From positions 1 through 64,000 of IMG/VR virus record IMGVR_UViG_3300016665_000824: 64,000 nt of DNA; one strand, 5' to 3'. Source of the stretch: a virus. Shown here piece by piece: positions 7,200-45,780 of the stretch; the stretch's first letter is position 1; each line of letters starts with the position of its first letter. The notes beneath the pieces were generated by a model. The model saw only the letters and a program-made list of their open reading frames with translations. It was not told where the DNA came from and made no database searches. Both the position numbers and the translations under genes were made by a program.

Positions 7200-7203
7200 C
7201 TCT

Positions 7204-7588: not shown

Positions 7589-7636
7589 TCAATTGCAACT
7601 CTTCGGAATCCGAAGGGTTGCTCTAGGAGAAAACAC

Positions 7637-8763: not shown

Positions 8764-9058
8764 TCCAACAACCGTAAAAACTGGGTGGATGGGAGATCCA
8801 TCTAGAGGTGCAGCAATGGGTCGCCCATCTAGAATCACCCATGTTTCTCAACTTCCACCTCGCAGTGTCTATCTGTCGCGAGTCAAGTTGATTGACGGCT
8901 ATGACGAAGGCGGGGCTTACTGGGGAGTTGGAGCGCCATTGTACTGCGCTTACTCCGACGACTATTGCGAGTACTGCGAGTATGTTCGCGCTTATTCTCG
9001 CGAGGATGCCGCTACTCAACTCGGATTGACTTCTCAACAACTTAAGAGGGCGCTATAA
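8756..9058 (+). CDS. hypothetical protein
   Basis: ATG 8756 overlapping previous stop by 8 nt (track gives 8744 TTG). Confidence 0.5.
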   Translation: MTNPTTVKTGWMGDPSRGAAMGRPSRITHVSQLPPRSVYLSRVKLIDGYDEGGAYWGVGAPLYCAYSDDYCEYCEYVRAYSREDAATQLGLTSQQLKRAL

Positions 9059-9061
9059 ATC

Positions 9062-9349
9062 ATGCTCCCTGAGTCAATCGCATTGATTTCAAGCTCAAAA
9101 GATCCCCTACTTTTGCAGTCCAACGTTTCTGTTCGTGAGGTTCATACCTCTCAAATATCGGTAGGAGATACTATTCTCTGCCCCGACGGGACTGTTAGGA
9201 CAGTATGTAATAGAAACATTCATCGCTGCCCTTCTATGGGGCGTTCAATATTTGGAGATACCTATCAACTCGGACATAAGCCTGTCCTTAGAGTCGTAAT
9301 CACTAGAACCATATACAGAGAGGGAAAACAATGCTTCGTAGAAGTTTGA
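9062..9349 (+). CDS. hypothetical protein
   Basis: 95-codon ORF. Confidence 0.5.
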   Translation: MLPESIALISSSKDPLLLQSNVSVREVHTSQISVGDTILCPDGTVRTVCNRNIHRCPSMGRSIFGDTYQLGHKPVLRVVITRTIYREGKQCFVEV

Positions 9350-9630
9350 TTGTCGCTTCATTATTCTTGGCAGAAAGCGCGATCGCCACTCCACTTCCAC
9401 TCGACCCACACCTCTGCTACATGCAGAAATCGAATGGGCAGGTAGTCAACCTCGGTCACTTGTGCGGCAAGGGAGAGATCGCTCTCCCAGTTATAGGAGT
9501 AGCGCCAACTACCGCGACAACATCTACTCGTGCCACCTCCTCTGGGAAGTGTACATTTAGTGGTGATCGCGATTCTCGTGGAAATTTATGTGGCGGACGC
9601 GCAAGTGTTCGTCGTAAAGGAGGTAGGTAA
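9331..9630 (+). CDS. small secreted Cys-containing protein (predicted signal peptide)
   Basis: N-terminus MLRRSLIVASLFLAESAIA is signal-peptide-like; 4 Cys; Thr/Ser-rich linker; basic C-terminus. Confidence 0.55.
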   Translation: MLRRSLIVASLFLAESAIATPLPLDPHLCYMQKSNGQVVNLGHLCGKGEIALPVIGVAPTTATTSTRATSSGKCTFSGDRDSRGNLCGGRASVRRKGGR

Positions 9631-9866
9631 TGCCTGATACTGAGAAGATTTGGGCTTGGTGCGATCGCCATCAAAACTTGACTGGTATTCCACACGCGCT
9701 TTTGGTTTTTAAAACTTCGCGAGTCAGTTTTTTTGAGCCCTATAACATTCCTATATGGATTGCCGTTGCTCAGGAATGCAGGGAGTATTGGGTTTGCATC
9801 CAAGACGCGGAGGGTTCAACCCCAGAAGAAGCGATCGCCAAGCTAGCGGAGACATTAGGGTTATGA
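9630..9866 (+). CDS. hypothetical protein; C-terminal segment resembles HicB/UPF0150-like fold
   Basis: strong AGGAGG upstream; TAATG overlap; C-terminus ...CIQDAEGSTPEEAIAKLAETL resembles the PGC-G-T-EEA core of UPF0150 proteins (weak). Confidence 0.5.
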   Translation: MPDTEKIWAWCDRHQNLTGIPHALLVFKTSRVSFFEPYNIPIWIAVAQECREYWVCIQDAEGSTPEEAIAKLAETLGL

Positions 9867-10324
9867 CTACAAGATATTGCGTTACAAAACAAGTTCAATA
9901 TCCCGATGGCGATCGCGTTGTCGAGATATCTACAGGTACATTCGACTACGCTAATCCCGATTGCTTGAGCGACGGGATTAAGGAGTGCGAGACAGCTACT
10001 GAGGCTGTCGAGTATGCCATTGAGCTAGCACAAAAGTGGCAGGCTGAATGCGGTGAAGAAGTATTCATTGGCAAGGGCTATACAGGTGGCAACACCATGC
10101 CTTTCGATCCTTGGGAGCTTTGCGAAAACACTTATTCTCGCTTCCGATCATGGGCAAGAGAACGCGATGCGGACTTGCTGCGCTGCGATCATTGCGGTGA
10201 GGTCGTGAATGAGAAATATACCCTTCATCACTACCCAGACTTTGTTTTTTGCCGCGAATATTGCGCCGAAGAGTTTTTAGCTCAACAAGAAGAAGATCTA
10301 GAAAAGGAGTTTGAATATGCTTAA
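9863..10324 (+). CDS. hypothetical Cys-rich protein
   Basis: ATG 9863 in ATGA overlap with previous stop (track ORF 9755-10324); C-terminal CDHCG...FCREYC. Confidence 0.55.
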   Translation: MTTRYCVTKQVQYPDGDRVVEISTGTFDYANPDCLSDGIKECETATEAVEYAIELAQKWQAECGEEVFIGKGYTGGNTMPFDPWELCENTYSRFRSWARERDADLLRCDHCGEVVNEKYTLHHYPDFVFCREYCAEEFLAQQEEDLEKEFEYA

Positions 10325-10925
10325 GCAGTTAGAGTTTGTCCCGTTATCTGATTACCACGAGCCTATCGTGGCAAAGATTGAGATTATTCAAGACCAAACG
10401 CCATCTAGTCCCCGCAAATGGGATAACCTCGGCGAGATGGTTATTCGCAGAGCTATGGATGGTCACTTCTGTGGCGATCGCCTAGTCAACGATGAAGAAA
10501 TGAGTGAACTTATTAATCGTTGCCGAGTACAAGAACTTGTGTGGCGACCCATCTACGCATTGATTCACTCAGGAGTATGGCTATCGACCACCGAAAGCTT
10601 CAATGGGTATACCTGCAACTATGACACCTCGTTTGCAGGTGTCATCTATGTCGAGAACGACAAGATGATCGAAGAATACGGGGACTTATCTATTCGTAAT
10701 CGTGGCTTAGCGATCGCCTGCCTTGAATCCGAAGTTAAAACTTATCACCAATACCTCACGGGTGATGTCTATGGCTATCGAATGCTCGACCCCGATGGCG
10801 AGGAGGTTGATTCTTGCTGGGGATTTTATGGTTTGGATGTTAGCGAGAACGGAATGTTGGGCGCGATCGATTCCAAATATCACGATTTATTGAAGCAAGC
10901 TGCGGAGAATATTAAATATGTCTAG
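10311..10925 (+). CDS. hypothetical protein (204 aa)
   Basis: ORF. Confidence 0.6.
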   Translation: MNMLKQLEFVPLSDYHEPIVAKIEIIQDQTPSSPRKWDNLGEMVIRRAMDGHFCGDRLVNDEEMSELINRCRVQELVWRPIYALIHSGVWLSTTESFNGYTCNYDTSFAGVIYVENDKMIEEYGDLSIRNRGLAIACLESEVKTYHQYLTGDVYGYRMLDPDGEEVDSCWGFYGLDVSENGMLGAIDSKYHDLLKQAAENIKYV

Positions 10926-24896: not shown

Positions 24897-24924
24897 AAAA
24901 GCCCGTCAATATTGACGGGCTTTT
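24897..24924. terminator. bidirectional intrinsic terminator between convergent gene blocks
   Basis: AAAA GCCCGTCAATATTGACGGGC TTTT: 20-nt perfect palindrome flanked by A4 and T4. Confidence 0.7.
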
Positions 24925-24942
24925 GTGCTATTCAGATCAGAA

Positions 24943-25341
24943 TTAAACGAGATAGCGACCCTTAGTTTCGTATACCAAGTCAGTCTTTTCAACGATCGCT
25001 TCAGAATCCACGGTCAGAGAACCTGAAGGTTTGACCGATCGCAAGAAGCATTTTTCGAGCAACAAGCCAGAAACATAGATGTCTGAGTAGGCGGGGTCGG
25101 TCTTCTTCACTAAGTTGCTGAGGTTGGTTTCAGCAGTAGATTGAAGGGTTGTAACCTCTGTTCCAGACAAGCCGCTAACAGAATACTGAATAGTTCTTTT
25201 CGCAGCGTTAAAAGGAGTGATATCTCCTGCATAGTTAACGTTGAAGGTAATCGAGTTGCCTTCGCCTAATGACAGTTCGTTTGGCTGACAGACTCTTCCA
25301 GGCAAATCTGGGATTGATTGGAGAGTAATAGCAATAGACAT
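24943..25341 (-). CDS. hypothetical virion-module protein (132 aa, Ser/Thr-rich)
   Basis: last gene of the minus-strand structural operon. Confidence 0.6.
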   Translation of the reverse strand: MSIAITLQSIPDLPGRVCQPNELSLGEGNSITFNVNYAGDITPFNAAKRTIQYSVSGLSGTEVTTLQSTAETNLSNLVKKTDPAYSDIYVSGLLLEKCFLRSVKPSGSLTVDSEAIVEKTDLVYETKGRYLV

Positions 25342-25416
25342 ATGGTAGCTACCAATAAGTTTCTCTCATCTTCACGAGATCTTTTGGAAAGCCACTACGG
25401 ATTGCGGTATTGGCGA

Positions 25417-25734
25417 CTATGTAATAACGTTGTAGGCGAGATACAACTTCGCATCAGTTGCGGAAGTATATCCGCCAACCAATGAATCTCCAGTCTCTAA
25501 CCTAATATCGGCAACCTCTCTAGGTTGGTTTTTGAACATAGAGGCAGTATTCCATAAATAAGAAGTAACACCCGTAGAAGTATCTGCCACGCCAATACTG
25601 ATTGTTCCGCCATCGGCGGATACCGTGGCGATCGCATGGATAATTTCAATAACTTCTCCACTACCCGCAGTTAACAGATTGGTGGTCAGTGTCGTGGTCA
25701 AATCAATGGACTTAGCTTTGCGTGTGATAGCCAT
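25417..25734 (-). CDS. hypothetical virion-module protein (105 aa)
   Basis: ORF immediately downstream of the fibre gene. Confidence 0.6.
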   Translation of the reverse strand: MAITRKAKSIDLTTTLTTNLLTAGSGEVIEIIHAIATVSADGGTISIGVADTSTGVTSYLWNTASMFKNQPREVADIRLETGDSLVGGYTSATDAKLYLAYNVIT

Positions 25735-25736: not shown

Positions 25737-28700
25737 TTACGAGAAAGGATAGGTTGTAAAGGAGCCTGAGTTGTAGATCAGCGCCATTTCTGGCAGCGTT
25801 AACCGAGCGTTGTAGAAACCAAGCTCGTCAATAGAAAGGTTGTAACCGTAAGAGCCGATAGAAAAACTGCCAGTAAAAGAACTGATGGTTTCTGCGCCGA
25901 TGCCAGTAAAAATCTCTACTGGATTGCCATCAATTTTCAAAGCAATGATGTCATTTGCTTTGTCGATCTGAACGACGATCGACACCCATGCCCCTTCAGG
26001 GAATACATGAGTGCTGGTCGCATAGAAAGGAGTTGAGCCAATTACAAGGCTAAGGTTCCCTGACCCGTCAATAATCATGTAGTACTGCCCAGAATCGATC
26101 AGAGTAAATCCATGTCCAGGATCGATATCTGTTAAGGCGACAATCTTGACGGCAAAGGAGAACGAAAGGACGTTACTCGAAACATCAAAACTGGATGGCA
26201 CTGAGGCAACTAAGGCTCCTGTATTATGAAATACCGCCGTGTTCCCTGCAACCCCCGTAGCAGAAGTTACAACACTAGAACCATCAACAAGAGAAACCCC
26301 AAACAGCGAATCAATGCGACTGCCACTTACCTCATTTAAGTTCCAGTAGGCGATTGTCTTCGATAACAGGGTATTAACTTGAGCTGCGCCGCCTGACCCC
26401 CATACCATGCAATCTAAGAGATCATCTCCCGCATCGTATGTGCAGGTAATCAAACTTCTCGTTGATGGAGTGACAGAAATATTGTCGCTGCCGACAAATC
26501 GGTACTTAGAATCAAAGGTTAATGCACATCCCCCTTCTACGGGTTGCTTGAATCGAAATGACAGCTCTTGCCCATCTAGTAGGTTAGTTGGGTTCCCTAA
26601 CATTCTGGTTGAGCCAACGGCTGTGGTCAGCAACGCTCGGAAGTTATTGCTTAAAGATGCGTCTACGGCAATTGTTGAAGCGTCTGTCAAGGCATTGGGC
26701 GCGATCGCCTGTCCTTTGCTAAAAGACTGAGCCTTGTCTAAAGTGGCGATTATTTCCGATGATCCGCTAGAAGCGTTTCGCAATTTTAAAGTGTTGCTGT
26801 CATTGTAGAGAGCAATCTGACTCCCCGTAGTGGTTGGAGTGCTACCAGAAGTAACGATCACTCCAGTATTAGTTCCAACCGTACCCGTCTCACCCTTATC
26901 TCCCGCAGCCCCAGTAAACCCTCTTAGTCCGCGCACCCCGCGAGGAATTGTTAAGTTTATATTCTGGATACCGCTACTGTCAGTAAGAGTCATGGCGTAG
27001 TCATACTCGTCCGCCCCTAGAGTCACCGAGCCTACGCCAAATCGCTGGAGCCGAATCCATCTACCTGCTTGGTAGGATTCCAAGTCATTTGGTTTTGCCG
27101 CATAGGAAGAGTCGGTAGTGTCGTCAACGAGATAGGAATCATTTTGATACTGATACTCCCATTTCAAGCTAGCAACAATACATTTCTGGAGGTTTGGCGT
27201 AGTTGTAGAGCTAACTGCACGAAGGGCTGCAAGATTTGTTACGGGGGCGCGATTATACCTAGTCTTCTCAAACAACTCGCCAATCGTGGAGTCGGCTTCA
27301 AGGATGCAGCCATCCAAGGACGAATGACTAATTGAAGTAACCCTGTCGTTGTAGACAAAGGCGATCGCCACCTCGTAATTAGCGGTAGTAAAAATACTGC
27401 TACCTGATACGGGAGTAATAGCGTAACTCGCATCAGTCGCACGATACAATCCAAAACTTGCCGCAGGGTTGCTAGGCAACGAACCAACAGTCGTTTCGGT
27501 TCCGCTCAAGCCAATTGAAAAAGTCTGTGACACTCCTGCTAAAACAACCCCGTCAAAATACCAGATCGTTCCACCTCCAACTGGGCGAACAAAAAATCGG
27601 ATGCCTGATGGGTTGAAGTATCCCGCGCCAGACCCCGCAATTACATCGGGATAGTCGGGGCTGATATTTAGAGGATAAGTGACAGTGATTTCAAGTAAGT
27701 TGCTAGAAGAAAGCCCATAACTGCCAGACCAACTCCGAATATGTCCCAAACCATTAACCGTACCAACGATCGCTCTTAATACTGCGCCCTCAATCGTTGA
27801 ACCAGCGACATACAGCGACCCATTAATCGCCATAAATACTTTTTGGTTTGCGGTGTTAGCTTCAAGTCCTACAACCGCAGATTCTGGAATGGCTTGGAAT
27901 GTATATCCACCCCCCGAAGACAAAGAAATCGTGCCAGAGCCTTTTAGGGCTTTAGCCGAGTTCGCGCCAGAACTGGGAACAATTCGACGGCGATCATATT
28001 CTGCGGCAATAAAAGATCCCAAGAGGCTTGAATCGGGATTGTATTGGGCAAAATCCGCATACAAGTATGGTGAAGCCCTAAGTACAGACCCTTGAACGGG
28101 ACGATTCTTTAGTTGGAAAGAGCGAAATTCAAGACGGACTTGCAAAAACACAGCGCTACCAACAGGTAACTCCTTCTGCAATACCATCCCCGTCTGCGCC
28201 CCTGAATAGGCGATCGCGGTGTTAACCACCATCCCCACAGTGTCGATCGCCCCAGTAGTCTTGTCCACATACCCCTGAAAGATGATTGAAGCAAGCCCCA
28301 CGAACTGGCTCGACACGTCAACATTATCAAGGTCGAATGACAGCCCGATCCGAGTACCGCTAGGAATGGGATTGGATTCGTTATTTACAAGCCAAAAGCC
28401 GATCGCCTTGCTTGCCGTACCATCTACCCCGTAGTCAGGAGTTAAAATTACTGCGGTATCGGTAATATCAACAATTGAAACGTCGCAGCCATTTAACTCG
28501 GTGGTGCTTGGCACGTAGGTAGAGAACACTTGAGGATAAACATCCTTCCACCCTGTTGGTGCAAATACCGCGTCGTAAGCAACAAAGCGACTGGATGGAG
28601 TGGCGATCGCCCGACGCATTCCATGTACAGGACTGGCGGGAAGAGAGGCTTCATCGGTAACAGTTAGTCCCGTAATCGCAAGGTGCTGATCTTGACTCAA

Positions 28701-29063
28701 CTCAATCACCGCAGGCAGTGCGTACGGAGTGCCGTCAGTTTGATATCCAGGGAATGAGGCGACGGTTACGGCGGTACTGACATCATTACTGACGGACATC
28801 AGTATCACATACTCGTGAATATCAGTGCCATTAATCCCCCCGACGCTAGCGGGTTTCGCGCCAGTCGGGATTGTAATTACAATCTTTTGCCCTGCCGCAA
28901 CGGTCGTTGAGGCGGATGTAGATACAGCGCTGTAACCCGCCCTATTACGGTATTGCAACCAAAAATACTTAGTTCCAGCCTTGTCGCTGGTAATGCTGCC
29001 GCTACCCAAGCTTAATTGTGGCGATGGCGGAGTAGCTGGAGTTCCCTGATATTGATATCGCAT
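25737..29063 (-). CDS. tail fibre / receptor-binding protein with collagen-like Gly-X-Y tract and C-terminal ConA/LamG-like domain
   Basis: 1108-aa ORF; G-X-Y x8 (GVRGLRGFTGAAGDKGETGTVG) at about 26880-26950; C-terminal ~180 aa has LamG-like beta-sandwich pattern. Confidence 0.8.
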   Translation of the reverse strand: MRYQYQGTPATPPSPQLSLGSGSITSDKAGTKYFWLQYRNRAGYSAVSTSASTTVAAGQKIVITIPTGAKPASVGGINGTDIHEYVILMSVSNDVSTAVTVASFPGYQTDGTPYALPAVIELSQDQHLAITGLTVTDEASLPASPVHGMRRAIATPSSRFVAYDAVFAPTGWKDVYPQVFSTYVPSTTELNGCDVSIVDITDTAVILTPDYGVDGTASKAIGFWLVNNESNPIPSGTRIGLSFDLDNVDVSSQFVGLASIIFQGYVDKTTGAIDTVGMVVNTAIAYSGAQTGMVLQKELPVGSAVFLQVRLEFRSFQLKNRPVQGSVLRASPYLYADFAQYNPDSSLLGSFIAAEYDRRRIVPSSGANSAKALKGSGTISLSSGGGYTFQAIPESAVVGLEANTANQKVFMAINGSLYVAGSTIEGAVLRAIVGTVNGLGHIRSWSGSYGLSSSNLLEITVTYPLNISPDYPDVIAGSGAGYFNPSGIRFFVRPVGGGTIWYFDGVVLAGVSQTFSIGLSGTETTVGSLPSNPAASFGLYRATDASYAITPVSGSSIFTTANYEVAIAFVYNDRVTSISHSSLDGCILEADSTIGELFEKTRYNRAPVTNLAALRAVSSTTTPNLQKCIVASLKWEYQYQNDSYLVDDTTDSSYAAKPNDLESYQAGRWIRLQRFGVGSVTLGADEYDYAMTLTDSSGIQNINLTIPRGVRGLRGFTGAAGDKGETGTVGTNTGVIVTSGSTPTTTGSQIALYNDSNTLKLRNASSGSSEIIATLDKAQSFSKGQAIAPNALTDASTIAVDASLSNNFRALLTTAVGSTRMLGNPTNLLDGQELSFRFKQPVEGGCALTFDSKYRFVGSDNISVTPSTRSLITCTYDAGDDLLDCMVWGSGGAAQVNTLLSKTIAYWNLNEVSGSRIDSLFGVSLVDGSSVVTSATGVAGNTAVFHNTGALVASVPSSFDVSSNVLSFSFAVKIVALTDIDPGHGFTLIDSGQYYMIIDGSGNLSLVIGSTPFYATSTHVFPEGAWVSIVVQIDKANDIIALKIDGNPVEIFTGIGAETISSFTGSFSIGSYGYNLSIDELGFYNARLTLPEMALIYNSGSFTTYPFS

Positions 29064-29138: not shown

Positions 29139-31127
29139 CTAAGCAATGTAAGCACTAGCATCTACCGCTACGAAGTCAACAGTAGGCTGGGTAATATCAA
29201 CAGTTTCTTTTGTTATTCCGAAAGGATTAGCAGCTAGATTGGTAATAAAAACATCGATTTTTTCGATCGGAATTTGCCTTTTAGGAGTCCCAGAATCCGT
29301 AGGGTCGTCCATCGTGAATGGCTTTAAGGGGATGCTAAACAAAGTTGCATCAACAAGATTGGGTCGAAAATATCTATCAAAAATATCTAAAAGGTTCTTG
29401 CCGTTACCTAATTCATCCCTGTCTAAAGCATTTTTAAATCTACTTCTGGGAAACTCGTTTGACTTGTTACCCACAACAAGAACGCCTTTAGGTATACCTT
29501 TACTGTCCTTTATCGATAATAGATACGACTCTCGCTTTGCCCCGATCGCGACAATAAATTCTAAGTCAGTCCCAAAGATAAAACCCTGTTGTGATGAGTT
29601 GGAAAAATAGCCAAGCGTCGTCCCAGCAGAAATAAACTCCGAAGCAGAGTAAAACATTTTTAATTTTGTTGGCAAAGGCTTTACCTCTTCATTAAGAATC
29701 TCAGGCTCTCCAAGGCTAATCCTTAAATCGACTTCAACAGACCCAGACAGAGAGCATGTACCCGTAGTTACGATCACAAGAAAACTCTCAAAACCCTCGT
29801 AGGTAAACCCCTTCCCAGTGACCTCAATCCCCGCAAAAGGATTTACTAGGTAGGCAAGTCTTATCCCGTCAGCAACATCTGAAGGAGTATTGCCTTCAAG
29901 TACTGTGTATGTATATGTTCTCGTCTCTTCTTCTAACAGTGAATTCAAGCCTGTCACAGAAAGAGTAACAACAGTACTTGGCGGGTTGTCGGTCATTTTC
30001 CCCAAAAATCCTTTCTTTCCCGTAACCGTTGGGGACGACGAAGATATAGAAAGCGAAAAGTCGTCAGCGTTATAGTCTCCCCGAACAACTATGGTTGATG
30101 GACTAGAAGTGGTTGAAGAGTAGAAACCAAACGAGAAAAGGTTCGAGTTTGTAGACAAGGCTAATATCAACCCCGCCACAACGTCCTGCTCCGAATTGTC
30201 CGACTCTACTACCGTGTAAGTCACCGAGTATGGTGTTGAAACAACAGAGCCTTCGGGAGATAGCGTTATCTTAGAGACAACAACCGTAATAGTTTCACCC
30301 GTTATGGGTTCAAAAGACCTTAGTGAGAATCTAATGCTTTTAACGTCTAGTTGCTGGTTGTCGGAATAGAGTAAAGCCCCCTTAACCCCAGTAGTCGTAT
30401 CTGCCCAATAGGAGGCGTATTTTGTAATTGCCGACTCTAAAAAACCAAAATCAGTTCGGACTCTTTTCTTAACCGCCAATTCAAATGCCGTATAAAACCC
30501 GTTCTGGAAGCAAGAAAGTGTAGGAAAGTTAAACAGGTTTTCAAACAAGAAGCCTTGGTTGTCGGGATAGCTAGGATCATCGACCCCAAACCCTGCATAA
30601 ACTCGCGGAACGTCAACATCTTTAACCATTTCCTCCCCAAGGGGGGATAACGTCACCAATGTAAGCTTGTCGGATTTTAGTAGTCTCACATTAACAAGCC
30701 AGTCGGACAACCCCGTACCCAAGTTGTTTATCGTCGGAGGTCCAAACAGCGCATAACCCTCTGGGATTGTGTAAACACTTGTAGGTTCAGCGCGATCGCC
30801 ACCTATATAGATTTCGGTTCCCTTGACATAAAGAATCTTTACTGGACCACCAGTGCCATCCGCAGAAGGCGGTTTATTCTTCCTCTTGTATATCGTCTTT
30901 TTTTGGATAGTACCTGATTCTCTTGCTGATACCGCATACCACTGTCCATCATCCGCTTGTAGGGCAACACAACTACCCGAAGATATTGGAGTCCCCGCGA
31001 TCGCACGAACTGTACCATCTTCGCTAACGACCGTACATTCATTGTTACTGTCTACGCCAATCGTATTCCCAAAAACAATCCTGTTTTGGGCTTTCAGCGC
31101 TGCAATTAATCTTTCTTCAGGTGTCAC
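29139..31127 (-). CDS. putative tail/baseplate structural protein (662 aa)
   Basis: large ORF in tail module, GTG start overlapping upstream micro-ORF (GTGA). Confidence 0.7.
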   Translation of the reverse strand: MTPEERLIAALKAQNRIVFGNTIGVDSNNECTVVSEDGTVRAIAGTPISSGSCVALQADDGQWYAVSARESGTIQKKTIYKRKNKPPSADGTGGPVKILYVKGTEIYIGGDRAEPTSVYTIPEGYALFGPPTINNLGTGLSDWLVNVRLLKSDKLTLVTLSPLGEEMVKDVDVPRVYAGFGVDDPSYPDNQGFLFENLFNFPTLSCFQNGFYTAFELAVKKRVRTDFGFLESAITKYASYWADTTTGVKGALLYSDNQQLDVKSIRFSLRSFEPITGETITVVVSKITLSPEGSVVSTPYSVTYTVVESDNSEQDVVAGLILALSTNSNLFSFGFYSSTTSSPSTIVVRGDYNADDFSLSISSSSPTVTGKKGFLGKMTDNPPSTVVTLSVTGLNSLLEEETRTYTYTVLEGNTPSDVADGIRLAYLVNPFAGIEVTGKGFTYEGFESFLVIVTTGTCSLSGSVEVDLRISLGEPEILNEEVKPLPTKLKMFYSASEFISAGTTLGYFSNSSQQGFIFGTDLEFIVAIGAKRESYLLSIKDSKGIPKGVLVVGNKSNEFPRSRFKNALDRDELGNGKNLLDIFDRYFRPNLVDATLFSIPLKPFTMDDPTDSGTPKRQIPIEKIDVFITNLAANPFGITKETVDITQPTVDFVAVDASAYIA

Positions 31128-34951: not shown

Positions 34952-36403
34952 TTAATAATTCCAGTCAAGGGATTCGTAAACCAGAGTCATCGACTCGATC
35001 AGCTTCTCCGCGCCGACAAAGTATTCCTTCCCAGACGGCGTAGCGCCAATCAGGTAACAGTTTCTCAGTGTCGCGCCAAGCAAGCTAATTGTTCTCACTG
35101 CGGGGGTAGATCCTTTTGACAGGGCGGTGCGAGATGCGTTAGCTAGCGATCGCCATGCAATCACATCACTCGCTTTAACCCCTGACAACCCCAATGTTAC
35201 TGATTGGCGAGCGAGGGCTACCTGTGTTTGCACTCCATTGCGATTAAGGAGGATCTGTGAGTTATCGGCATCGGCAAAAGAGATCGAATCAACCTCATAG
35301 CCATCGAAGAAGTTTGCTGCGCCCGCACCCGTTTGATCGTAAGACCAATATTTGCTGATAAATTCAAGCTGGGTTGATGCTCGTATTTCCCGCCCGCTTA
35401 CGGTTACGGTTTCTGAAGGAGTGACATTAGTAAGAATTGCCGAGGGGATTGTGTAGCCAGCAACAGTTAACGAGATGACTTCAGGATTAAGAGCATCGGC
35501 AACATTTTCGACCTTGTGGATATAGTTGACTGCATATTCTGCGGGTGTGCCAATTACCGAGAAGGATATCCGCCGCTTAAAGGTTGGGACTTCGCGACGA
35601 CCCGAACCTGCTTGGTTAATTACAAATATCTTTGTATCAGCGCCAACATTAATATTCGCGATCGGGTAGCCATCGAAAGTCCCCTGAGAGAATGGGACAT
35701 CATAATTTCGAGTTTCATATTCAAGCACCAGTGCATCACTAATTTTGCCCAGCCCCGTAGTAATCGAAGCGGTCGGTGTTACTGATGTCAGTACTGCATT
35801 ACTTAAAGTAATACCGCCAATAGTAATGTCTTCAGTTAGTGGCGCAAGCAGGTCTGTATTCAGTAAGTTTAAAAATTTCTGATAGTCGGCTGGTGAAGTA
35901 CCTTTCAGGGTAATCGTCACCTTGCGGCGCTTAACTACGGCAGTACGAACTATGCCTGCATCGGCATACTGGACGCTAATCGAATCACCATCACCGAACT
36001 GAACCCCGTCTAACTCGACCGTATAACCTTTAAAGTGGTCGAAGGCTACACCATGCGTCCAAGTATTACTTTCGTAGAGCAGTCTTAAAGTCTCAACTAT
36101 TTGAGCTTCACCTACCTGCAAAATACCCGTTATTTCTGCGGAGACAAGGCGACATCCCGACAAACTGCGTCCACCATAGGAGATACTGTCACGGAGATCA
36201 GATCCTGCTTCTGCTGCGGACTGATAGTAAAGAACGTCGGCATCTGAGACCCCAGTAATGGTTATCCCGATGTTTGGGCGATAAGCCTTGAATTTTTGGA
36301 GCGTAGACCCGTCCTGCTTGGTGAATTCCCTAGACTCCGCCTCGCCAAACTGAATACCATCTGGCGCGATCGCAAATCCATCAAATTGTAAAAGCGAAAT
36401 CAT
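34952..36403 (-). CDS. putative tail structural protein (483 aa)
   Basis: ORF in tail module. Confidence 0.7.
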   Translation of the reverse strand: MISLLQFDGFAIAPDGIQFGEAESREFTKQDGSTLQKFKAYRPNIGITITGVSDADVLYYQSAAEAGSDLRDSISYGGRSLSGCRLVSAEITGILQVGEAQIVETLRLLYESNTWTHGVAFDHFKGYTVELDGVQFGDGDSISVQYADAGIVRTAVVKRRKVTITLKGTSPADYQKFLNLLNTDLLAPLTEDITIGGITLSNAVLTSVTPTASITTGLGKISDALVLEYETRNYDVPFSQGTFDGYPIANINVGADTKIFVINQAGSGRREVPTFKRRISFSVIGTPAEYAVNYIHKVENVADALNPEVISLTVAGYTIPSAILTNVTPSETVTVSGREIRASTQLEFISKYWSYDQTGAGAANFFDGYEVDSISFADADNSQILLNRNGVQTQVALARQSVTLGLSGVKASDVIAWRSLANASRTALSKGSTPAVRTISLLGATLRNCYLIGATPSGKEYFVGAEKLIESMTLVYESLDWNY

Positions 36404-37321: not shown

Positions 37322-37351
37322 GGTAACAAGGACTTGAGTCCTTGTTACCTT
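37320..37351. terminator. bidirectional terminator hairpin (14-bp stem) between convergent moron and tape-measure genes
   Basis: AAGGTAACAAGGAC ttga GTCCTTGTTACCTT; both stop codons lie in or at the stem. Confidence 0.65.
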
Positions 37352-40300
37352 ACTCCGCTAGTAACACCCGCTACTCGTCTCAAGACATTATTAAGCGTGT
37401 CATTAACAGCCTTCTGGACATCATTGCCCACACCCGCCGCAGAACTAATGTTGCTTTGAGTATTGATAGCGATCGGGGCATTAACCGTAATATTTCCACT
37501 TGTACCCAGAGCCGCACCCGTAGGATTGCCCTGTTGCTGAGGAACAAGATCTTTACCGCCAAGACTACCGAAAGCCTGCGCCAATGCCTCCGCTCTTTGA
37601 AGTTGTCCTTCGTCAAGCAAGGCGATCGGCTTGTCGAGTTTCTTCTGGGCTTCCTCAAATGCCTTGTCGTCGATCTTCAATGTCACGGGGTTCTCGGAGA
37701 TTTGCTTCGACACACGGTTAAATTCCGCTTCCAGTCCTGCGGTTAAATCTTTAACCTTGAGATCTGGGGCAACCAACACCTTGGAGAAGCCTTCATCGAT
37801 TTGCTGAGTTAACTTGTCGAACGAAGACGCGATCGCCTGTTCTGGCTTTGCTTCCTCCGTAGGTTTGCCACCGTACTTAGCGTTAAGCTCCTCAAACGAG
37901 TTGGCTTGAGCAGGATACTTCTTGTTAAGCTCCTCAAAGCTGCCTGCCATGCCCTTGTCGGGATATTTCTTGGCTAACTCCTCAAAGCTAGTAGCGAACG
38001 GTGCGTTATCAGGCTTTGGTTCGGGTGCAGCCGTAAATACTCCGCCCTGCTCAACCTGCCCAAGCAATGCCGAGGTGGGGTTCTTAAACGAAGCACCGCG
38101 AACATTAACAGGTTGGCTTGCCGCAGCCACAGCATTACTTACATCCGTGGTAGTCAATGCTGCTGTACCCGTATTTTGAGTTAAGCGAGCAAGCTGCTCT
38201 CGTTGTAGGCGCTCTTGCAGCGCAGGATCTCTAGTTGCGCCAATAACATCGCCGATCGCCGTATTAGTTTCGCCTTGCTGTTTATTGGCAAGAGCTTGAC
38301 GATCATTCTTGTTGACAATCTCGTTAACCTTGGCTTCGTCGGCAATGAAACCCTTTTCTTGCTGCAATCCACCCAATTCAAGAAAGTTCTTCTCCTGTCC
38401 AAGCTTGGCTTGAGCAAGTTTAAGCTTCGCCTCTTCGGACTGGGGACGTAGTTTAACCTCCAACTCGGCGGCTTTGATAGCAGCATCCTGTGAGGCAATG
38501 TCCACCTTCTTCTTGGCGATCGCGATTTCATTTTCGACCTTCTTGCGTTCAAGCAATAGGTCACGCTTCTGGATTTCCCGCTCCAAGGACTCGGCTTCAA
38601 ACTTTTGCTGTTGCTTGAGGGAATTAAGCTTAAGAACGGCAAGTTTTTCCGCAAGAATCAGCTTTTTCTCTTCGAGTTCGAGATCGGCAAAGTTGCCCTG
38701 ACCACCTGCGGCACGGATGGCAGCTTGTTGGCGATCGTAGATCTTGTTGAGAGCAGCAAACTCTGACTCGCGTAATGCCACTGTAGACTGGGCAAGTTTA
38801 TTTGCCGACTCGGATAGGCGGCTTTGATTCTCAAGCCCCTTTTCTAGTGCGGTGAATAATAGTTTTTGACGTTCAAGCTTGAGGTTTTGCTGCTCAATCG
38901 TGACCGCATACTTTTGTGATTCCAAGACTAGGCGATCGCGCACTGCGGAAACTAATCCTTCAATCGCCGCGAGTTCGGCTTCAGCGAGCTGTTTGGATAG
39001 TTCAGCAACCTTGATTAGATTAGCGTTCTTAGTTTCCTTGCTAACACCAACGCCCTTCTTCTCAAGATCGGCGATCGCCTTCTGCTTTTGTTGTTCGAGT
39101 TGCAGCTCTAAAGTGATACTGCGTTTACGTTCGGCAGTTTCTTGAAGCTTAATTTCAGATTCAAGCTTAATTCCCGACTTGCGGAGTTGAGCTATCTGAG
39201 CAAGACGCTGAGTCTCGCCAACCTTTTCGGCGGCAAGGGTCTCCTTAATCTGTGCATCCAATCCCTTAACAAAGCGCTCGGAACGGGCTTTGGCTATTTT
39301 TGCCTCAGCGTCCTTCCGTTTGTTGTCGGCATCCTCTTCTAATCGCGCTTTCTGGGCGGCGGTAGCCTTAACTAGATCAAGCTCTTTTTTGTTTGCGTCA
39401 GCAATAGAGTTTTTCGCCAAGTTTTGACGTTCGGCATCTGGCTTTGCGATTGAGGAAAGTTGATCCCTCTTTGTCTGCAACGTCCGAAGTTCAGACTCTT
39501 TCTTGGCGATCGCGTCCTGTTCCGCCTTGATCTGTGCGGTGTACTCCGAGGAATTAAAAAATGGCGCGTCTTTTACGGTGTTGAATCGCTGTAATGTCTC
39601 CGCATTCCCAGCTTTCAGACTAGACAAGGCTTTTTCCCCATCTTCAATCTGCTTCGTAATTCCCTCTAGCTGTCCCTGAGTATCCTCTGACAACTTTAAG
39701 GTGCTATCCAAGGTTCCTTTCTGGCTCTGGAGGCTATTAAGTCTTGATTGCAACACAGCAAGCTCGTCCGTTACTTTCTTAACGTCCTCGGCAGCGTTAT
39801 CTCCCGCAACACCCGTACTTATAGACTCTTGGAGAGCCTTCTTCCTTGCCTCTGCATCTTTGATCTGTTGACTGGTATCGTCGATCTTTCCTTGCAAGAC
39901 AGGAGCTTGAGCTTCCCTGACCTGCCGTATCTTTGAAGGATCTCCAGTTGCAGCAGCTAACTGCGCTTCCGCCAACTCGCGATCGCGCTTAATCTGTTGT
40001 TTCTGCTCATTAGCGTTGGTCTCCAAGATCTGCTGTCTTGCTCTTAGAGCCTTTTGATCGGCTTCAGACTGGGCTTGAATCTTCTTCTCCTCTAATTGTC
40101 CAGAGAGGGCGATCGATTCAGACTCAGAGATTCGCCCCGTGGCGAGCAAAGCTTGAATCTGGGAAAGTTGAGCGTCATAAATAGCTATGCGGCGATCCGC
40201 CTCCTTTTTGTACGCGGCAGTAATCGCTTCTTGAGCCTTTATCTGTAAATCGCGATCGGCAGAGACATTCGTAGCTACTTTTTGAAACGCTCCCGCAACT

Positions 40301-43300
40301 TCGTCTGCACGGAGAATCCCTGCATCTTGAAGGGCGTTAGCCGTTTCAAGCAACTCGCCCAACTTCGCCTTAAATAGCGCAGGATCTCCCGCAGACTTGT
40401 TTAAAGCGTCAAGGGCTGCATTATATTTTGAAGTTGCCTGCTCGATCGCATTACCAATACGAGGAAGATCAATAGCCTGAATTTGCAGGTTTACCGACTT
40501 GTAGGATTCTTGAAGTTTTCTAAGGGCTTCAAGTTCTCGATCTCTTTCTGCGTCTAAACCTTCTACAGCTTGAACCTGATTAATGATTGCCTCGATATTG
40601 TTGTTTCTTTCGGCGATCTCCTTCTTCTTATTCTCGATCTGAATATCAAAACGCGCAGCACCATCTTTGTCGCTTAGCGCTTCCGCCTTGGACTTTTCCT
40701 GCTCTAATTTAATTAAATCCTCTTGGAGTTTCTTCTGAGCAGACAGTCCTATTCCTAGATCAACCCGCCGAGAAGCTGACTGATTTAAGACGTTTTTATT
40801 ATCTTGCAATCTTATTTGGACGGCTTTCTCTTCAAGATTTCCTGCGCGATCGCCTAGACCTAACTTGTCGGAAGCGCCAAACGTTACCGTTCTTAGCCCC
40901 TCTCTTGCCGCGTCACCTGTAAGAGCAAAACCTTCTGTAACGCGAGTACCAATATTGTCTCTCTCTTTTTTAACCTTCTCCCTCAACGCGTCTTCGGAGT
41001 TGGTTGGTTTGCTTTGTAATCCCCTCAACTCTTTGAGTTTTGCGAGCTGTTGATCATACAGCTTTAAAGTGGGGTCATCTTGGAGGATGCTCTTGTCTTG
41101 GATTGAGGCAACATATTTTTCGCGTTCTGAGGTTAGGTTTGCTAGCTCAGAAGCGGCATCCTTTCCTTGCGATTTGTTTAGGATCGCAACCCTTGCGTCA
41201 CTATCTTTGAGCGCATCGTTGAGTTTGTCTACATTGGCTGTAGCTGCTTTTGTTTCCTGATCGACGTAGCCAACCAAGGTTGTTATTGCGGCGAAAGCTG
41301 CGCTTAACAATAATGTAGGACCAATTTCTGCGGCGAGGGCGGCGAAGGATTTGCTGATACCTTTGACATTCTCGGAAATAAACGAGGTAGCGCCTACAGC
41401 ACCCTTTTTGAGGTTTGAATAAAGTCCACCGACACTAACGTTCGCGTTTTGAGTGAAATCAGCAAAGCTAGACTTAGCTCGCGAGCCAAAATCTTTGACA
41501 CCAGAAAGAGCATCTTGGAAACCTGTCTTTAACCCAGCACCTAAATTTTTGAGGCTTAAATCGGGGAGAGAAATAGACTTGACTTGATTGACAAACTTAT
41601 CTATAGCGATACGAGAATTAGCCAAAGAAGCGGGAATATTTAGCTCTCTAAAGAACTTATCGAGTCCCAGTCTCGCGTTTGCAAGAGAGGTAGGGACGTT
41701 GATCTGGGAAAATGCTTTTTCAACCCCGTTGCGGAGGTTTACCAGCGAGGCAGGAATGTTGATATTTGCAAAGGCGTTCCGAATGCTAGCTTTAGTATTC
41801 TCAATTTGCGCGGGGAGATTTGCAAAGATACCAGTTTTTTGACTCGAATCCTGACTGAACCTTCCCTTAATGTCAGATATAAAACTACCAATAGAGTCGC
41901 CCAAGGACTTCAAAGAAGTTTTTGTCTTTGTGGCGATCGCTCCAATATCTTCTGCGAACTGTTTTGTGAACGGGACGGGAATTGGATTGGCAATAATCTG
42001 ACTTCGGAGCGACTTGATTCTGTCGGTAGTCTCCTGATAACTTTTAAGAGCCGCCGCACGAGCTTCGGGGGTTAACGACAGATCTGTAGAGTCTTTTTGG
42101 CTCACGATCGCCTGCTGTTTTAGTCCAGAGACCTCTCGTTTAGCGGCGACAACCTGAGTAGGATTTAGAGTCGTTGACTGAACTGGCTTGCCCCCAAGTA
42201 TTTCTCGAACACTATCGTTTAGCTTCTTGATGCGCCCAAAGGTTTCGCCAATACTGGCTCCAGCACCGCTAATTCCCGTGTTAATTGTCTTAAATACATT
42301 GGAGATTGTGCCACCAAACAGCTTGGTAACAGCGATCGCGATTAGCAATCCGCCAACTACTTTTTGAAAAGGATTGGAGTTCTCGCCAAAAGTAAAGAAC
42401 GGCAATATCGTGTCTGCAACCACCTTAATTACTGGTGCTAATACCGACCCTACCGTATCCGCAAACTTACGAATAGCTGCGGTTACATCCTGAATGATTT
42501 TTTGTAGACCTTTGTTCTTCAGGATTAACTGATCGAAGAAGACAAAACCAACAAATGTTCCAGCACCCAACAAGGCTGTTGATACGGCAAAAGACCTTGC
42601 CGCAGCTCCTGCCGCTTTTAATGAATTAGAGAAGATGCTGTTTACTTTCTCGGTATTTGTAGCGACATCGGCAAACTTGCCCAAGCTCTTGGCTGCGTCC
42701 GCAATCAACGGGCTAAACGAGCCAAATAGTTGGGACTTACCAACAATGCCTGAGAAAGCTGTTAAGGCGATCGGCGCTGCCTTCGTAAATCCTTGCAGTG
42801 CGGTTCCTAGCGCAGGAAATGCTTGAGTAAGTCCAATCAGTTTTACCCCAAAGCCACCTAGTGTTGGCAAAGCGGCAGTTATAACTCCCGCGAATGGCGA
42901 GAACGCACCGAGAACTTTGCCCAACTCTTTTTGGACTAAGCCAGCAGCACCAGGGATCTTGTTTAGATTCTCCGCCAACAACAGGAATCCAGCAGACCCT
43001 CGACCGACAACCGAACTTAAATTAGCAAAAGTGTTGACAACCCCGTTAGTACGCTTGTCAAGCAGGAAGAGAACTTCTCCCAAACCTGGTACAAGATTAA
43101 ACATCAACGAGAAGCCTTTGTTTAATGCCCCGATCGCGCCCGAAAGAACTTTTGCGCCGACGGAGATGCCGATCCAAATCCCTCCAAGAGGACCTACAAC
43201 ACCTGCAATTTGTTCAAACACATTAATAGCTGGCTGAACAACAGCAAGAGTAAGGCTCATCGCATCGGAAAAAGCCTTTACTGCGCCAGCGAGAGACTTG

Positions 43301-45780
43301 AATAGGTATTCTGGAACCTGCCCAAAGATCTGGAAGAATGGCCCCGCGAGACTTTTTAGGGTCGCAATCACGTTCTTGAATACGTCAAACAGTATTCCTG
43401 CGAGACTCCCTACTTGAGCAGCGATCGCGTCTTTATTCTTTGAGAAATACTGGTAAAACCCGTCAAGTTCCGCTACTAAAGGTGCGAGGAATTTCTCCCC
43501 AGCGAGTCTGCCGATCTCATCAACTAGCTCTTGAATATTGCTAACAATCCCACCCACGGACTGAGCAGCTAGCTTGTTTCCAGACTTAAATGCTTCTAAT
43601 CGACCTAAAAGCTCTTTGACGAAGGTTCCTTGAGACTTCCACTTAGCCACCATCTCATTGTTGAGGTTAAGCGATTTGGCAAGAGCTGAGTTTTGGTCAA
43701 TAGTTCCCGAAGTTATACTAACAACCTCTTGACGGGCTTGATATAAAGGTATGCCAAGCGTTCCGAGTGCGGCGGCGAACGAGGTTGTAATATTAGCAGC
43801 GTCATTCAAGGACGCGCCAATGTTGCTTGCCTGCCCAGCAACGATCTGAAAAACCCCGACAAGATCTTTACTGGTTACGCCGACCAGCTCTAACGAGTCT
43901 TTACGAATTTTATCGATCGCCCCTTCAACCGCAGGGCCAACCGCCTTGATCGCTTGAGTTGGATCTGATACGCGATCGCCATTAACTACGATTCTATTGG
44001 TTGCCGCTAAGCTCGCCTGAGTAGAGAGTAGTTGCTCTTGGAGCCTGATGTTTTGCCCAATCAACAGATCGAAAGGGCCGTTTTGTACAAATCCTTGGAG
44101 TGCCTGCAATCCCAATCCCAAGAAAGCAAGTCTCTGAGATACTTCAAAGATCGCGTTGGTTGCCTTGCCAGCACCTTCGCTAATTAGATTGAATACTTCT
44201 AGTGGTTCCGTCGCCCCCGCCACTGGAGCAACCACTGCGGCGGCAATATCTACAGGTTCTTGCAGCTTCGGGGCTATCTCTTGAGTCTTTTGAAACCCCT
44301 TAACGATAACATCATCAACACTATCGATGACAGTACCGACTTCGGCAAGGATTGTTGATCTCAGTCCATCAACAAAATTCTTACCTGCGATCGCGCCAGT
44401 ATCTTTTAAAAGCGAACTAAATGTTCCGCCAAAAAACTCGTCAATCTTGGTTGCAAGTTTTTGCAGTGAGCCATCCCCGCTTCCGATAGAATCAATCGCC
44501 GCGCCCAACCCTCCGTCAATAGCATCGACAGCTTTTAGGGCTAAATTCCTGAGAGGCGCAAGGATGCTAGTATCTTCTACGCTAAACAAGCTATTGAGAG
44601 CCTGTCCAACGCCTCCCTTTTGAGTCTCTATTAAAGGGCGGAGGATGGCAAAAGCGGATCTTAAATCCTCTGGAATTGCTTTTTCTAGTCCATTAAATAA
44701 CTGTCCAGACAACGCATTTCCAAAATCTTGCAACTCATTAGAGGCAACAATCGACCCCAAATTTGCCACCCCGATCTTGTTGGCAATCAGTTTTGCTAGT
44801 GGTGGTAGTGGCAACTTATCTACAAGCTGAGGGATTCGCCCCGCTAGGCGGTTGATCAGCTCAGATACAGAGCCGCCTAACTGTTCGTCAAGAATTTTAA
44901 ATTGATCGGTCGCCTCAGATCTGCTGCCGACGATTGCCCTGCCGACCGATCCTCCTAAAGCGCTAGATAAGCGCCCTACAACTCTTTGTCCGTCCTCAAC
45001 GTTTGGCGCGATTGCGTTAACGGCAAAAGCTTTAGCAGCACCCGATACCGACCCACCAGCCAACTGCTTCGACACTTCCGACAGCAATCCAGTTTTTGCC
45101 GCAGTCCGAAATGAGTTGGCGACAATTGAGGTTAAATCCGCCCCGAAAGCTTGGTTAACAATACCTTTTAAAGCGTCGGGGAGTCCTCCCCCAACAACGC
45201 CCGAAATGAGTGAGTCGGCGATCGCGTTATCTAGCGTTCCAGTAAAAGCCTCAACTCCCACTCCAAGCTTGCGCTGAATTTCTTGATTTAGCTTTGAAGC
45301 CCTAACATTTGCTTCTAACGCTTTACCGAAACTGTTTGCAGAATCGCTAAGTATCTGCGTAATTCTCTTGCCGTTATCCGAAAATATTGCAGACTGAGCT
45401 TGCTCTGCCGACTGCTTAGATAAGAATCCTCCTCCGACATCTTTTCCTGCAGAGGTAATCCCCTTGATTACCTTTGAGAGCGGAGCTAGTTTTGAAACTG
45501 CACTGTCGGCGACATTCGAGATCTGTTCTAAAAATATTTTGCCCGACTGCGTATCTAGTACATCTCGAACCGACTGAATTGCGTCTCTCAGCCCTCCAAA
45601 CGTGCCAATCGCGGTTGCCCCTACCGTGCTGATCGTTCCGCCAAGGGCTTGTACAGATCCCTTTGTTACGTCCGCAACAACACCAACACTTTTTAGACCA
45701 GCAGCTATCTCCGAAACTTGTTTGCTTGCTTGATCTTTCGCCTGTATTAAGATCTCAACAATATTGGTTTGCGGAGCCAT
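37345..45780 (-). CDS. tape measure protein (2811 aa)
   Basis: giant ORF with Gly/Ala-rich hydrophobic N-terminal half and ~1000-aa coiled-coil (Q/E/K/A-rich) half, upstream of baseplate/fibre genes. Confidence 0.75.
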   Translation of the reverse strand: MAPQTNIVEILIQAKDQASKQVSEIAAGLKSVGVVADVTKGSVQALGGTISTVGATAIGTFGGLRDAIQSVRDVLDTQSGKIFLEQISNVADSAVSKLAPLSKVIKGITSAGKDVGGGFLSKQSAEQAQSAIFSDNGKRITQILSDSANSFGKALEANVRASKLNQEIQRKLGVGVEAFTGTLDNAIADSLISGVVGGGLPDALKGIVNQAFGADLTSIVANSFRTAAKTGLLSEVSKQLAGGSVSGAAKAFAVNAIAPNVEDGQRVVGRLSSALGGSVGRAIVGSRSEATDQFKILDEQLGGSVSELINRLAGRIPQLVDKLPLPPLAKLIANKIGVANLGSIVASNELQDFGNALSGQLFNGLEKAIPEDLRSAFAILRPLIETQKGGVGQALNSLFSVEDTSILAPLRNLALKAVDAIDGGLGAAIDSIGSGDGSLQKLATKIDEFFGGTFSSLLKDTGAIAGKNFVDGLRSTILAEVGTVIDSVDDVIVKGFQKTQEIAPKLQEPVDIAAAVVAPVAGATEPLEVFNLISEGAGKATNAIFEVSQRLAFLGLGLQALQGFVQNGPFDLLIGQNIRLQEQLLSTQASLAATNRIVVNGDRVSDPTQAIKAVGPAVEGAIDKIRKDSLELVGVTSKDLVGVFQIVAGQASNIGASLNDAANITTSFAAALGTLGIPLYQARQEVVSITSGTIDQNSALAKSLNLNNEMVAKWKSQGTFVKELLGRLEAFKSGNKLAAQSVGGIVSNIQELVDEIGRLAGEKFLAPLVAELDGFYQYFSKNKDAIAAQVGSLAGILFDVFKNVIATLKSLAGPFFQIFGQVPEYLFKSLAGAVKAFSDAMSLTLAVVQPAINVFEQIAGVVGPLGGIWIGISVGAKVLSGAIGALNKGFSLMFNLVPGLGEVLFLLDKRTNGVVNTFANLSSVVGRGSAGFLLLAENLNKIPGAAGLVQKELGKVLGAFSPFAGVITAALPTLGGFGVKLIGLTQAFPALGTALQGFTKAAPIALTAFSGIVGKSQLFGSFSPLIADAAKSLGKFADVATNTEKVNSIFSNSLKAAGAAARSFAVSTALLGAGTFVGFVFFDQLILKNKGLQKIIQDVTAAIRKFADTVGSVLAPVIKVVADTILPFFTFGENSNPFQKVVGGLLIAIAVTKLFGGTISNVFKTINTGISGAGASIGETFGRIKKLNDSVREILGGKPVQSTTLNPTQVVAAKREVSGLKQQAIVSQKDSTDLSLTPEARAAALKSYQETTDRIKSLRSQIIANPIPVPFTKQFAEDIGAIATKTKTSLKSLGDSIGSFISDIKGRFSQDSSQKTGIFANLPAQIENTKASIRNAFANINIPASLVNLRNGVEKAFSQINVPTSLANARLGLDKFFRELNIPASLANSRIAIDKFVNQVKSISLPDLSLKNLGAGLKTGFQDALSGVKDFGSRAKSSFADFTQNANVSVGGLYSNLKKGAVGATSFISENVKGISKSFAALAAEIGPTLLLSAAFAAITTLVGYVDQETKAATANVDKLNDALKDSDARVAILNKSQGKDAASELANLTSEREKYVASIQDKSILQDDPTLKLYDQQLAKLKELRGLQSKPTNSEDALREKVKKERDNIGTRVTEGFALTGDAAREGLRTVTFGASDKLGLGDRAGNLEEKAVQIRLQDNKNVLNQSASRRVDLGIGLSAQKKLQEDLIKLEQEKSKAEALSDKDGAARFDIQIENKKKEIAERNNNIEAIINQVQAVEGLDAERDRELEALRKLQESYKSVNLQIQAIDLPRIGNAIEQATSKYNAALDALNKSAGDPALFKAKLGELLETANALQDAGILRADEVAGAFQKVATNVSADRDLQIKAQEAITAAYKKEADRRIAIYDAQLSQIQALLATGRISESESIALSGQLEEKKIQAQSEADQKALRARQQILETNANEQKQQIKRDRELAEAQLAAATGDPSKIRQVREAQAPVLQGKIDDTSQQIKDAEARKKALQESISTGVAGDNAAEDVKKVTDELAVLQSRLNSLQSQKGTLDSTLKLSEDTQGQLEGITKQIEDGEKALSSLKAGNAETLQRFNTVKDAPFFNSSEYTAQIKAEQDAIAKKESELRTLQTKRDQLSSIAKPDAERQNLAKNSIADANKKELDLVKATAAQKARLEEDADNKRKDAEAKIAKARSERFVKGLDAQIKETLAAEKVGETQRLAQIAQLRKSGIKLESEIKLQETAERKRSITLELQLEQQKQKAIADLEKKGVGVSKETKNANLIKVAELSKQLAEAELAAIEGLVSAVRDRLVLESQKYAVTIEQQNLKLERQKLLFTALEKGLENQSRLSESANKLAQSTVALRESEFAALNKIYDRQQAAIRAAGGQGNFADLELEEKKLILAEKLAVLKLNSLKQQQKFEAESLEREIQKRDLLLERKKVENEIAIAKKKVDIASQDAAIKAAELEVKLRPQSEEAKLKLAQAKLGQEKNFLELGGLQQEKGFIADEAKVNEIVNKNDRQALANKQQGETNTAIGDVIGATRDPALQERLQREQLARLTQNTGTAALTTTDVSNAVAAASQPVNVRGASFKNPTSALLGQVEQGGVFTAAPEPKPDNAPFATSFEELAKKYPDKGMAGSFEELNKKYPAQANSFEELNAKYGGKPTEEAKPEQAIASSFDKLTQQIDEGFSKVLVAPDLKVKDLTAGLEAEFNRVSKQISENPVTLKIDDKAFEEAQKKLDKPIALLDEGQLQRAEALAQAFGSLGGKDLVPQQQGNPTGAALGTSGNITVNAPIAINTQSNISSAAGVGNDVQKAVNDTLNNVLRRVAGVTSGVR
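37840..37995 (-). repeat. three tandem ~45-nt repeats encoding SFEEL-x-KKYP inside the tape measure gene
   Basis: GCTCCTCAAA recurs three times on + strand; protein repeats SFEELAKKYP / SFEELNKKYP / SFEELNAKYG. Confidence 0.6.

Follow-up and report, generated by a model that had tools for sequence, protein, structure and literature searches.

The question raised by this locus is whether a protein of 1108 amino acids (aa), encoded on the minus strand of the IMG/VR virus record IMGVR_UViG_3300016665_000824, is a tail fibre with a collagen-like tract and a lectin-like end and, if so, whether it determines the host range of the virus. An original prediction, made from the sequence of the analysed stretch alone (positions 1 to 64,000 of the record; hereafter the window), had proposed both. 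We find that the protein is probably a virion tail fibre, or receptor-binding protein (RBP), of an uncultured siphovirus-like cyanophage and that its C-terminal laminin G-like (LamG) domain probably serves as a non-catalytic module that binds a host polymer. The open reading frame (ORF), on the minus strand, has the coordinates that the prediction had given, and its product has a modular order, comprising an N-terminal body, a linker with a collagen-like tract, a neck, a small domain termed M and, appended last, the LamG domain (Table 1). The original prediction overlooked the M domain (aa 785-888), which, on comparison with the homologues, is the usual C-terminus of this family and leaves the LamG domain as an extra, lineage-specific appendage.

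The C-terminal domain had been described as approximately 180 aa with a LamG- or concanavalin-like pattern; the assignment holds and the domain is longer, at ~220 aa. A Pfam scan of the full-length protein gave only a sub-threshold match to Laminin_G_1 (E=0.083) and did not report Laminin_G_3; with aa 888-1108 scanned alone, Laminin_G_3 (PF13385) was matched at 30.6 bits (E=4.5e-7), over the cut-off of 27.6. The 85%-identical homologue P0004 scored 25.3 bits for Laminin_G_3 in a full-length scan. As Laminin_G_3 illustrates here, terminal domains can be hidden when long, low-complexity fibre proteins are scanned whole. A search with aa 671-1108 against 1.84 billion cluster representatives (E<=1e-3) matched 3276 proteins, which resolve into two independent domain families, and the M and LamG (L) segments were aligned separately (alignments A2, A3). 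For the last ~220 aa, alignment A2 brings together 20 relatives, one of them 72% identical and the others 23-34%; it includes a conserved D-E pair (D195, E196).

The AlphaFold2 (AF2) model of aa 885-1108, built from alignment A2, is all-beta, with a predicted local distance difference test (pLDDT) of 84.3 and a predicted template modelling score (pTM) of 0.85. Foldseek returned 471 matches to this model in the PDB at E<=1e-3, headed by the HCN domain of the clostridial neurotoxins, domain 4 of the GH43 arabinanase AbnA, the lectin domain of trans-sialidase and the pentraxins (query-normalised TM-score, TMq, of 0.65-0.75, E~1e-9 and probability 1.00). The fold predicted by AF2 and Foldseek together is a two-sheet beta-sandwich jelly roll. 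Searched by sequence, the A2 profile found an S-layer-domain-containing protein (4qvs, 3.9e-11), the pentraxin PTX3 (1.6e-9) and AbnA (3.4e-9) in the PDB, and the best structural and profile matches are all binding modules. As modelled, then, the C-terminal domain is a lectin-like fold of the concanavalin A (ConA) type, the feature on which the original prediction had, beforehand, been made to depend.

The boundaries of the gene and of its modules are well defined. The homologues open with the same residues, MRYQYQGTP, and the start codon of the ORF is thus sound; a protein identical to this one, flanked by the same genes, is encoded on a 134-kb metagenomic contig from ENA (ERZ27292652 k141_20893). 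BLAST comparison with 39 homologues places sharp boundaries at about aa 670 and aa 888: aa 1-670 are common to all of the homologues, aa ~735-888 to a subset, and aa 889-1108 were found only in five near-identical proteins and one fragment. A word-indexed homologue search with the LamG domain as query gave just one further protein. The L domain gave no match by tblastn against 50,697 phage genomes. Its nearest relatives outside the phage clade (27-34% identical) are tandem copies in giant proteins; in P0043, P0047, P0052 and P0072, LamG-like domains form tandem arrays of 3-6 copies in proteins of up to 4364 aa. A recent foreign origin of the LamG module was considered and is not supported, its GC content and GC content at third codon positions (GC3) matching those of the rest of the gene. 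NCBIfam gave no match for the fibre protein or for the neighbouring proteins, and no Pfam match to the auto-cleaving C-terminal chaperone Peptidase_S74 was found (E<=1 for the full protein and E<=10 for C-terminal pieces).

The isolated phages with a related protein are Aphanizomenon phage vB_AphaS-CL131 (35% identical over aa 1-672) and Planktothrix phage PaV-LD, together with nine records of Nodularia phages and, judged by these sequences, the phage is related to this group. A search with an alignment of the N-terminal body only (A5), using one genome per GTDB species, found the N-terminal family only in cyanobacterial assemblies, namely those of Pseudanabaena sp. 'Roaring Creek' (61% identity), Anabaena minutissima and a metagenome-assembled genome of the Prochloraceae. 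The Pseudanabaena locus (L007; contig-143, 6001-10787) encodes a homologue of 790 aa, then a LamG-like ORF and then a 272-aa ORF that matches Pfam Gp80, 'Podophage GP4 fiber I protein' (E=7e-26). It may be a prophage or a co-assembled phage contig, and in either form hints at the host group.

The C-terminus, whose variability among related phages the original prediction had suggested comparing, does vary. Against relatives of ~85% identity, the N-terminal body is 83-96% identical and M 84-88%, and identity is lowest, at 61-69%, in the LamG core. Beyond aa 888, P0006 has another and longer C-terminus in its place, again with a match to Laminin_G_3. We also surveyed, with hidden Markov models (HMMs) of the N-terminal body (N), M and L, all of the ORFs of 20 fetched loci, of which 19, representing 17 distinct loci, contain N. 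The usual architecture in these 17 loci is N followed by M, and the full set of N, M and L is confined to the window and to three IMG/VR contigs of ~90% identity. Among the more distant relatives, four (L001, L005, L007 and L013) have a separate LamG-like ORF beside the fibre gene. That of L007, of 298 aa, begins at the next base after the fibre gene and scores 29-31 bits with the L-family HMM, with no Pfam family at E<=0.1; that of L013 overlaps the end of the fibre gene, and the 222-aa protein of L005 (Pfam, 32.3 bits) lies one small ORF beyond it. The fourth of these proteins, gp036 of CL131, matches Laminin_G_3 at 55 bits and begins 4 nt past the fibre gene, gp035.

The encoding of a LamG-like protein beside the fibre gene in these relatives suggests that the LamG protein rides on the end of the fibre, to which it is covalently fused here. 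On this basis we advance, tentatively and as the less probable case, a two-component receptor-binding apparatus, in which a fibre that ends in M carries a separate, exchangeable lectin of the LamG type, as gp035 and gp036 of CL131 would do, and for which the fusion in the window would be a 'Rosetta stone' that identifies the docking partner.

The assignment as a tail fibre or RBP, made from context and homology, is well supported. The 2811-aa protein of the window has a weak match to a tape-measure family (phrog_305, E=3.3e-4) and is followed on the same strand by genes for proteins of 483, 283, 819, 58, 662 and 1108 aa, the last being the fibre; a 117-aa protein also has a place in the order, between those of 283 and 819 aa. 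If the 2811-aa protein is the tape measure, the tail should be unusually long. Matches to CL131 were found for the 819-aa protein (ORF032) and the 662-aa protein (ORF034), giving an order that is syntenic with ORF032-034-035 of that phage. Liquid chromatography with tandem mass spectrometry of purified CL131 virions detected ORF032, ORF034, ORF035 (30 peptides, 34% coverage) and ORF036 (5 peptides; PMC6293099, Table S5), and the same study recognised no tail-fibre or baseplate gene by bioinformatics. We read the protein as a tail fibre, in agreement with the original prediction, because it lies downstream of the tape measure, because its CL131 homologue is confirmed in virions by proteomics and because it is a mosaic of a conserved N-terminal and a variable C-terminal part. 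The 662-aa protein has only its first ~113 aa in common with CL131 ORF034 (31% identity, E=6e-10), the rest being unrelated, and this pattern of conserved N-terminus and variable C-terminus suggests a second fibre or receptor-binding protein.

The N-terminal body (aa 1-670) matches PHROG 31840, a family of unknown function, at E=3.7e-124 over profile positions 2-699. An AF2 model of aa 1-895, built on 48 sequences (pLDDT 86.5), presents aa 1-670 as confident, compact, beta-rich globular domains and not as a thin shaft. Local fold matches include the SPO1 capsid protein gp6.1 and the Pa223 capsid spike, and listed with them are Acinetobacter phage gp49, the HFTV1 fibre gp42, TSP2 and TSP4 of CBA120, the RBPs of the lactococcal phages 1358 and p2, the long tail fibre of cyanophage A-1(L) and TssK. 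Sequence searches of the PDB with the full protein, the M region, the N-terminal profile and the 819-aa and 283-aa neighbours gave no usable match, and the N-terminal body has no sequence relative with a solved structure there.

The M domain (aa 785-890, ~105 aa) is modelled very confidently as a small beta domain. Among the best database matches it ends within 15 aa of the C-terminus of the protein in 108 of 167 instances; it matches the C-terminal ends of the PHROG tail-fibre families 4549, 9017 and 22179, the end of PHROG 31840 itself and the C-terminus of the 'fiber protein' of cyanophage P-SS2 (ACT65634.1, 38.7% identical). In the homologues of ~790 aa, from which the linker is missing, a diverged M follows directly after the N-terminal body. 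The canonical layout of the family is hence N, a spacer that is often collagen-like, and M, and the LamG domain is therefore an addition past the usual end. The label PF26209 (Phage_phiTE_241_C) for M comes from precomputed matches on P0002-6, P0008, P0018 and P0040, of which the one given a strength, that for P0018, is marked weak; our local Pfam scan did not report PF26209 for the fibre protein or its homologues, and the paper on the cryo-electron microscopy of phiTE is without mention of PF26209 or phiTE_241.

The collagen-like run, GVRGLRGFTGAAGDKGETGTVGTN, consists of exactly eight uninterrupted Gly-X-Y triplets (aa 709-732), the number originally given; the position proposed for it (about 26880-26950) was some 11 nt away from the true one. 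No run of at least eight triplets appeared in 20,000 shuffles of the protein, which is 9.9% glycine. P0018 and P0019 (43-45% identical) and CL131 gp035 have tracts of 5-12 triplets in the corresponding place, and because the tract recurs at this position in diverged relatives we regard it as a conserved feature and not as chance. Prolines are present in the tracts of the homologues P0003 and P0018, and CL131 gp035 clears the Pfam Collagen cut-off, with 37.1 bits.

From these modules a mode of action may be proposed. The 670-aa N-terminal body would dock on the tail tip or baseplate, and the flexible linker and the short Gly-X-Y tract would join three chains, either nucleating the trimer or acting as a hinge. 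The neck and M, the usual distal end in this fibre family, would here form the distal end together with the LamG domain, which would bind a polymer of the host surface, most probably an envelope, sheath or mucilage polysaccharide, and may contribute to host specificity. We infer that the fibre protein is a major determinant of host specificity, because its tip modules are exchangeable and fast-evolving, and probably not the only one. Of the claims made originally, glycan binding and a sole role in determining host range are likewise those that we would put conditionally, with the 662-aa neighbour as the second candidate.

Several observations weigh against this interpretation. ConA-like domains also bind proteins, as do those of laminin G and the neurotoxin HC. 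The tract of eight triplets is short and without proline, its score for Pfam Collagen (PF01391; 14.5-16.6 bits) is under the gathering cut-off of 27.2 and it has a pLDDT below 50 in the monomer AF2 model, so that a triple helix is only putative; that the linker and tract should be unmodelled is nevertheless what is expected of a monomer model of a trimeric element. M occurs in tandem arrays of 8-9 copies as well and is thus not strictly a tip; besides ending fibres, it can serve as a repeated module. The proteins with such arrays are P0041 and P0042 (1257 aa and 2132 aa), and P0041 ends in a weak match to Pfam Phage_tail_C. The homologous module of CL131 is not beside the tape measure gene and lies upstream of the head genes. 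Finally, pairwise comparison of the fused LamG domain with the separate LamG proteins of CL131 and L005 found no similarity to either; we therefore reject a simple read-through fusion of an orthologous LamG gene and favour the recurrent association of the same domain family.

The explanation that best survives beside a LamG domain that determines specificity is that this domain is an accessory 'sticky' module of low affinity, by which the phage attaches reversibly to mucilage or sheath, with specific and irreversible recognition left to M or to another tail protein such as the 662-aa or 819-aa protein. Members of the family do, after all, normally have M as their distal end, and M is variable too, the 113-aa N-terminus that the 662-aa protein keeps is typical of RBP mosaics and most relatives dispense with a fused LamG; among near-identical phages, however, no segment diverges more than the LamG core, which is what a specificity determinant should show, and LamG-like genes are recurrently linked to the fibre gene. 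We consider an accessory role possible but doubtful.

Much less probable is that the protein is a capsid or neck fibre, or a decoration protein with adhesive domains, and not a tail fibre. Collagen-like head fibres do occur in some phages, and both the local fold matches to SPO1 gp6.1 and the Pa223 capsid spike and the position of the CL131 module upstream of the head genes could be read in this way, but in the window the module comes straight after the tape measure gene and the fibre has its M domain in common with annotated tail-fibre families. We give slightly less credence still to a glucanase- or lyase-type depolymerase of host exopolysaccharide in place of a lectin, to which the presence of GH16 glucanases and polysaccharide lyases in the ConA-like superfamily, a weak profile match to glucuronan lyase (E=0.37) and a weak Phage_depo_C match in the alternative C-terminus of P0006 (E=0.45) might point, since the best matches named above are all non-catalytic, the Pfam family is Laminin_G_3 and not that of a glycoside hydrolase or polysaccharide lyase, and a regular-expression search of aa 889-1108 found no GH16-type E-x-D-x(1,2)-E motif in a domain that has one acidic pair only.

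The coordinates of the fibre gene, its modules and neighbouring genes are collected in Table 1. The 105-aa ORF begins 2 nt past the fibre stop codon and is 34% identical to a 112-aa ORF after the fibre gene in L005; it has no family match. The PHROG 35535 domain is present three times in the 483-aa protein, whose gene comes next to that of the tape measure, and the 132-aa ORF, two genes past the fibre, is a single copy of it; an ORF of 132 aa is found at the equivalent place in L004 and L005. The orientation of the genes switches at ~24900-25400, from mostly plus-strand genes upstream to the minus-strand structural module, which extends from 24.9 kb to ~60 kb, and the cumulative GC skew has its maximum at about 26 kb.

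Table 1. Position in the window of the fibre gene, its modules and neighbouring genes
Feature	Residues (aa)	Window position	Strand	Basis
Fibre gene, probable mosaic tail fibre / receptor-binding protein	1-1108	25737..29063	-	ORF list
N-terminal conserved body, probable virion-attachment and structural part	1-670	27054..29063	-	
Linker	671-708	26940..27053	-	AF2 pLDDT <50 over aa 675-733
Collagen-like tract of 8 Gly-X-Y triplets, probably a short triple helix for trimerisation	709-732	26868..26939	-	
Beta-rich neck	733-784	26712..26867	-	AF2 strands, pLDDT 54-76; 73-77% identity to close relatives
M domain, fibre-end module	785-888	26400..26711	-	AF2 pLDDT 93-97
C-terminal ConA-like / LamG (Laminin_G_3) domain	889-1108	25740..26399	-	Homology
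Pfam Laminin_G_3 match inside the LamG domain	962-1092	25788-26180	-	Pfam scan, domain alone
105-aa ORF, conserved partner gene; possible assembly factor or small tail protein		25417..25734	-	
132-aa ORF		24943-25341	-	
662-aa protein, candidate second fibre / receptor-binding protein		29139-31127	-	
483-aa protein		34952-36403	-	
2811-aa protein, candidate tape measure		37345..45780	-	

Annotation is poor for the siphophages that infect filamentous and bloom-forming cyanobacteria (Aphanizomenon, Nodularia, Planktothrix, Pseudanabaena), and the present analysis offers a reasoned role, as a fibre or receptor-binding protein, for proteins of the PHROG 31840 or CL131 gp035 type. Also new are the internal and not terminal position of M in this protein and the alternation of fused and separate LamG domains in cyanosiphophages. 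Mosaic fibres that combine a lectin-type tip with a short tract of collagen-like repeats were already known, and the general view of phage fibres is unchanged. LamG cassettes, whether fused or next door, would be the variable distal element, and this is of practical use for host prediction from metagenomes and for engineering the host range of cyanophages. Should the two-component apparatus exist, phages of bloom-forming cyanobacteria would switch host mainly by swapping small lectin cassettes, or fusing them, onto a constant fibre.

It remains to set the protein beside known systems. Our reading of the literature found little specific on LamG or ConA-like domains in phage fibres. Like the members of Pfam Laminin_G_3 and the ConA superfamily, the C-terminal domain scores over the family cut-off, is predicted to fold as a jelly roll (TMq up to 0.75) and has similarity at the profile level; it differs in that its identity to them is just 10-20% and in that it is here the end of a phage fibre. 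Fibres of extracellular contractile injection systems (eCIS) join collagen-like shafts with lectin-type domains (PMC12923769), and the fibre of the window shares with these and with collagen-like phage fibres a short Gly-X-Y stretch between the body and the distal binding domains, whereas its own tract has only eight triplets, is free of proline and stays under the Pfam Collagen cut-off. The P-SS2 fiber protein and PHROG 4549, 9017 and 22179 have the M domain in common with it, at their C-terminal ends, but combine it with unrelated N-terminal parts and end there, without a following LamG. Conversely, the homologues in PaV-LD and the Nodularia phages (PHROG 31840) have the N-terminal body, at 29-32% identity by tblastn, and differ in their other C-terminal parts, which are without a fused LamG. 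A further counterpart is CL131 gp035 (ATW59303.1), which resembles the fibre in its N-terminal 672 aa, its collagen-like tracts, its M domain and its syntenic neighbours ORF032 and ORF034, but whose Gly-X-Y tracts are longer (10 and 12 triplets) and which ends in M, with Laminin_G_3 encoded separately in the 235-aa gp036.

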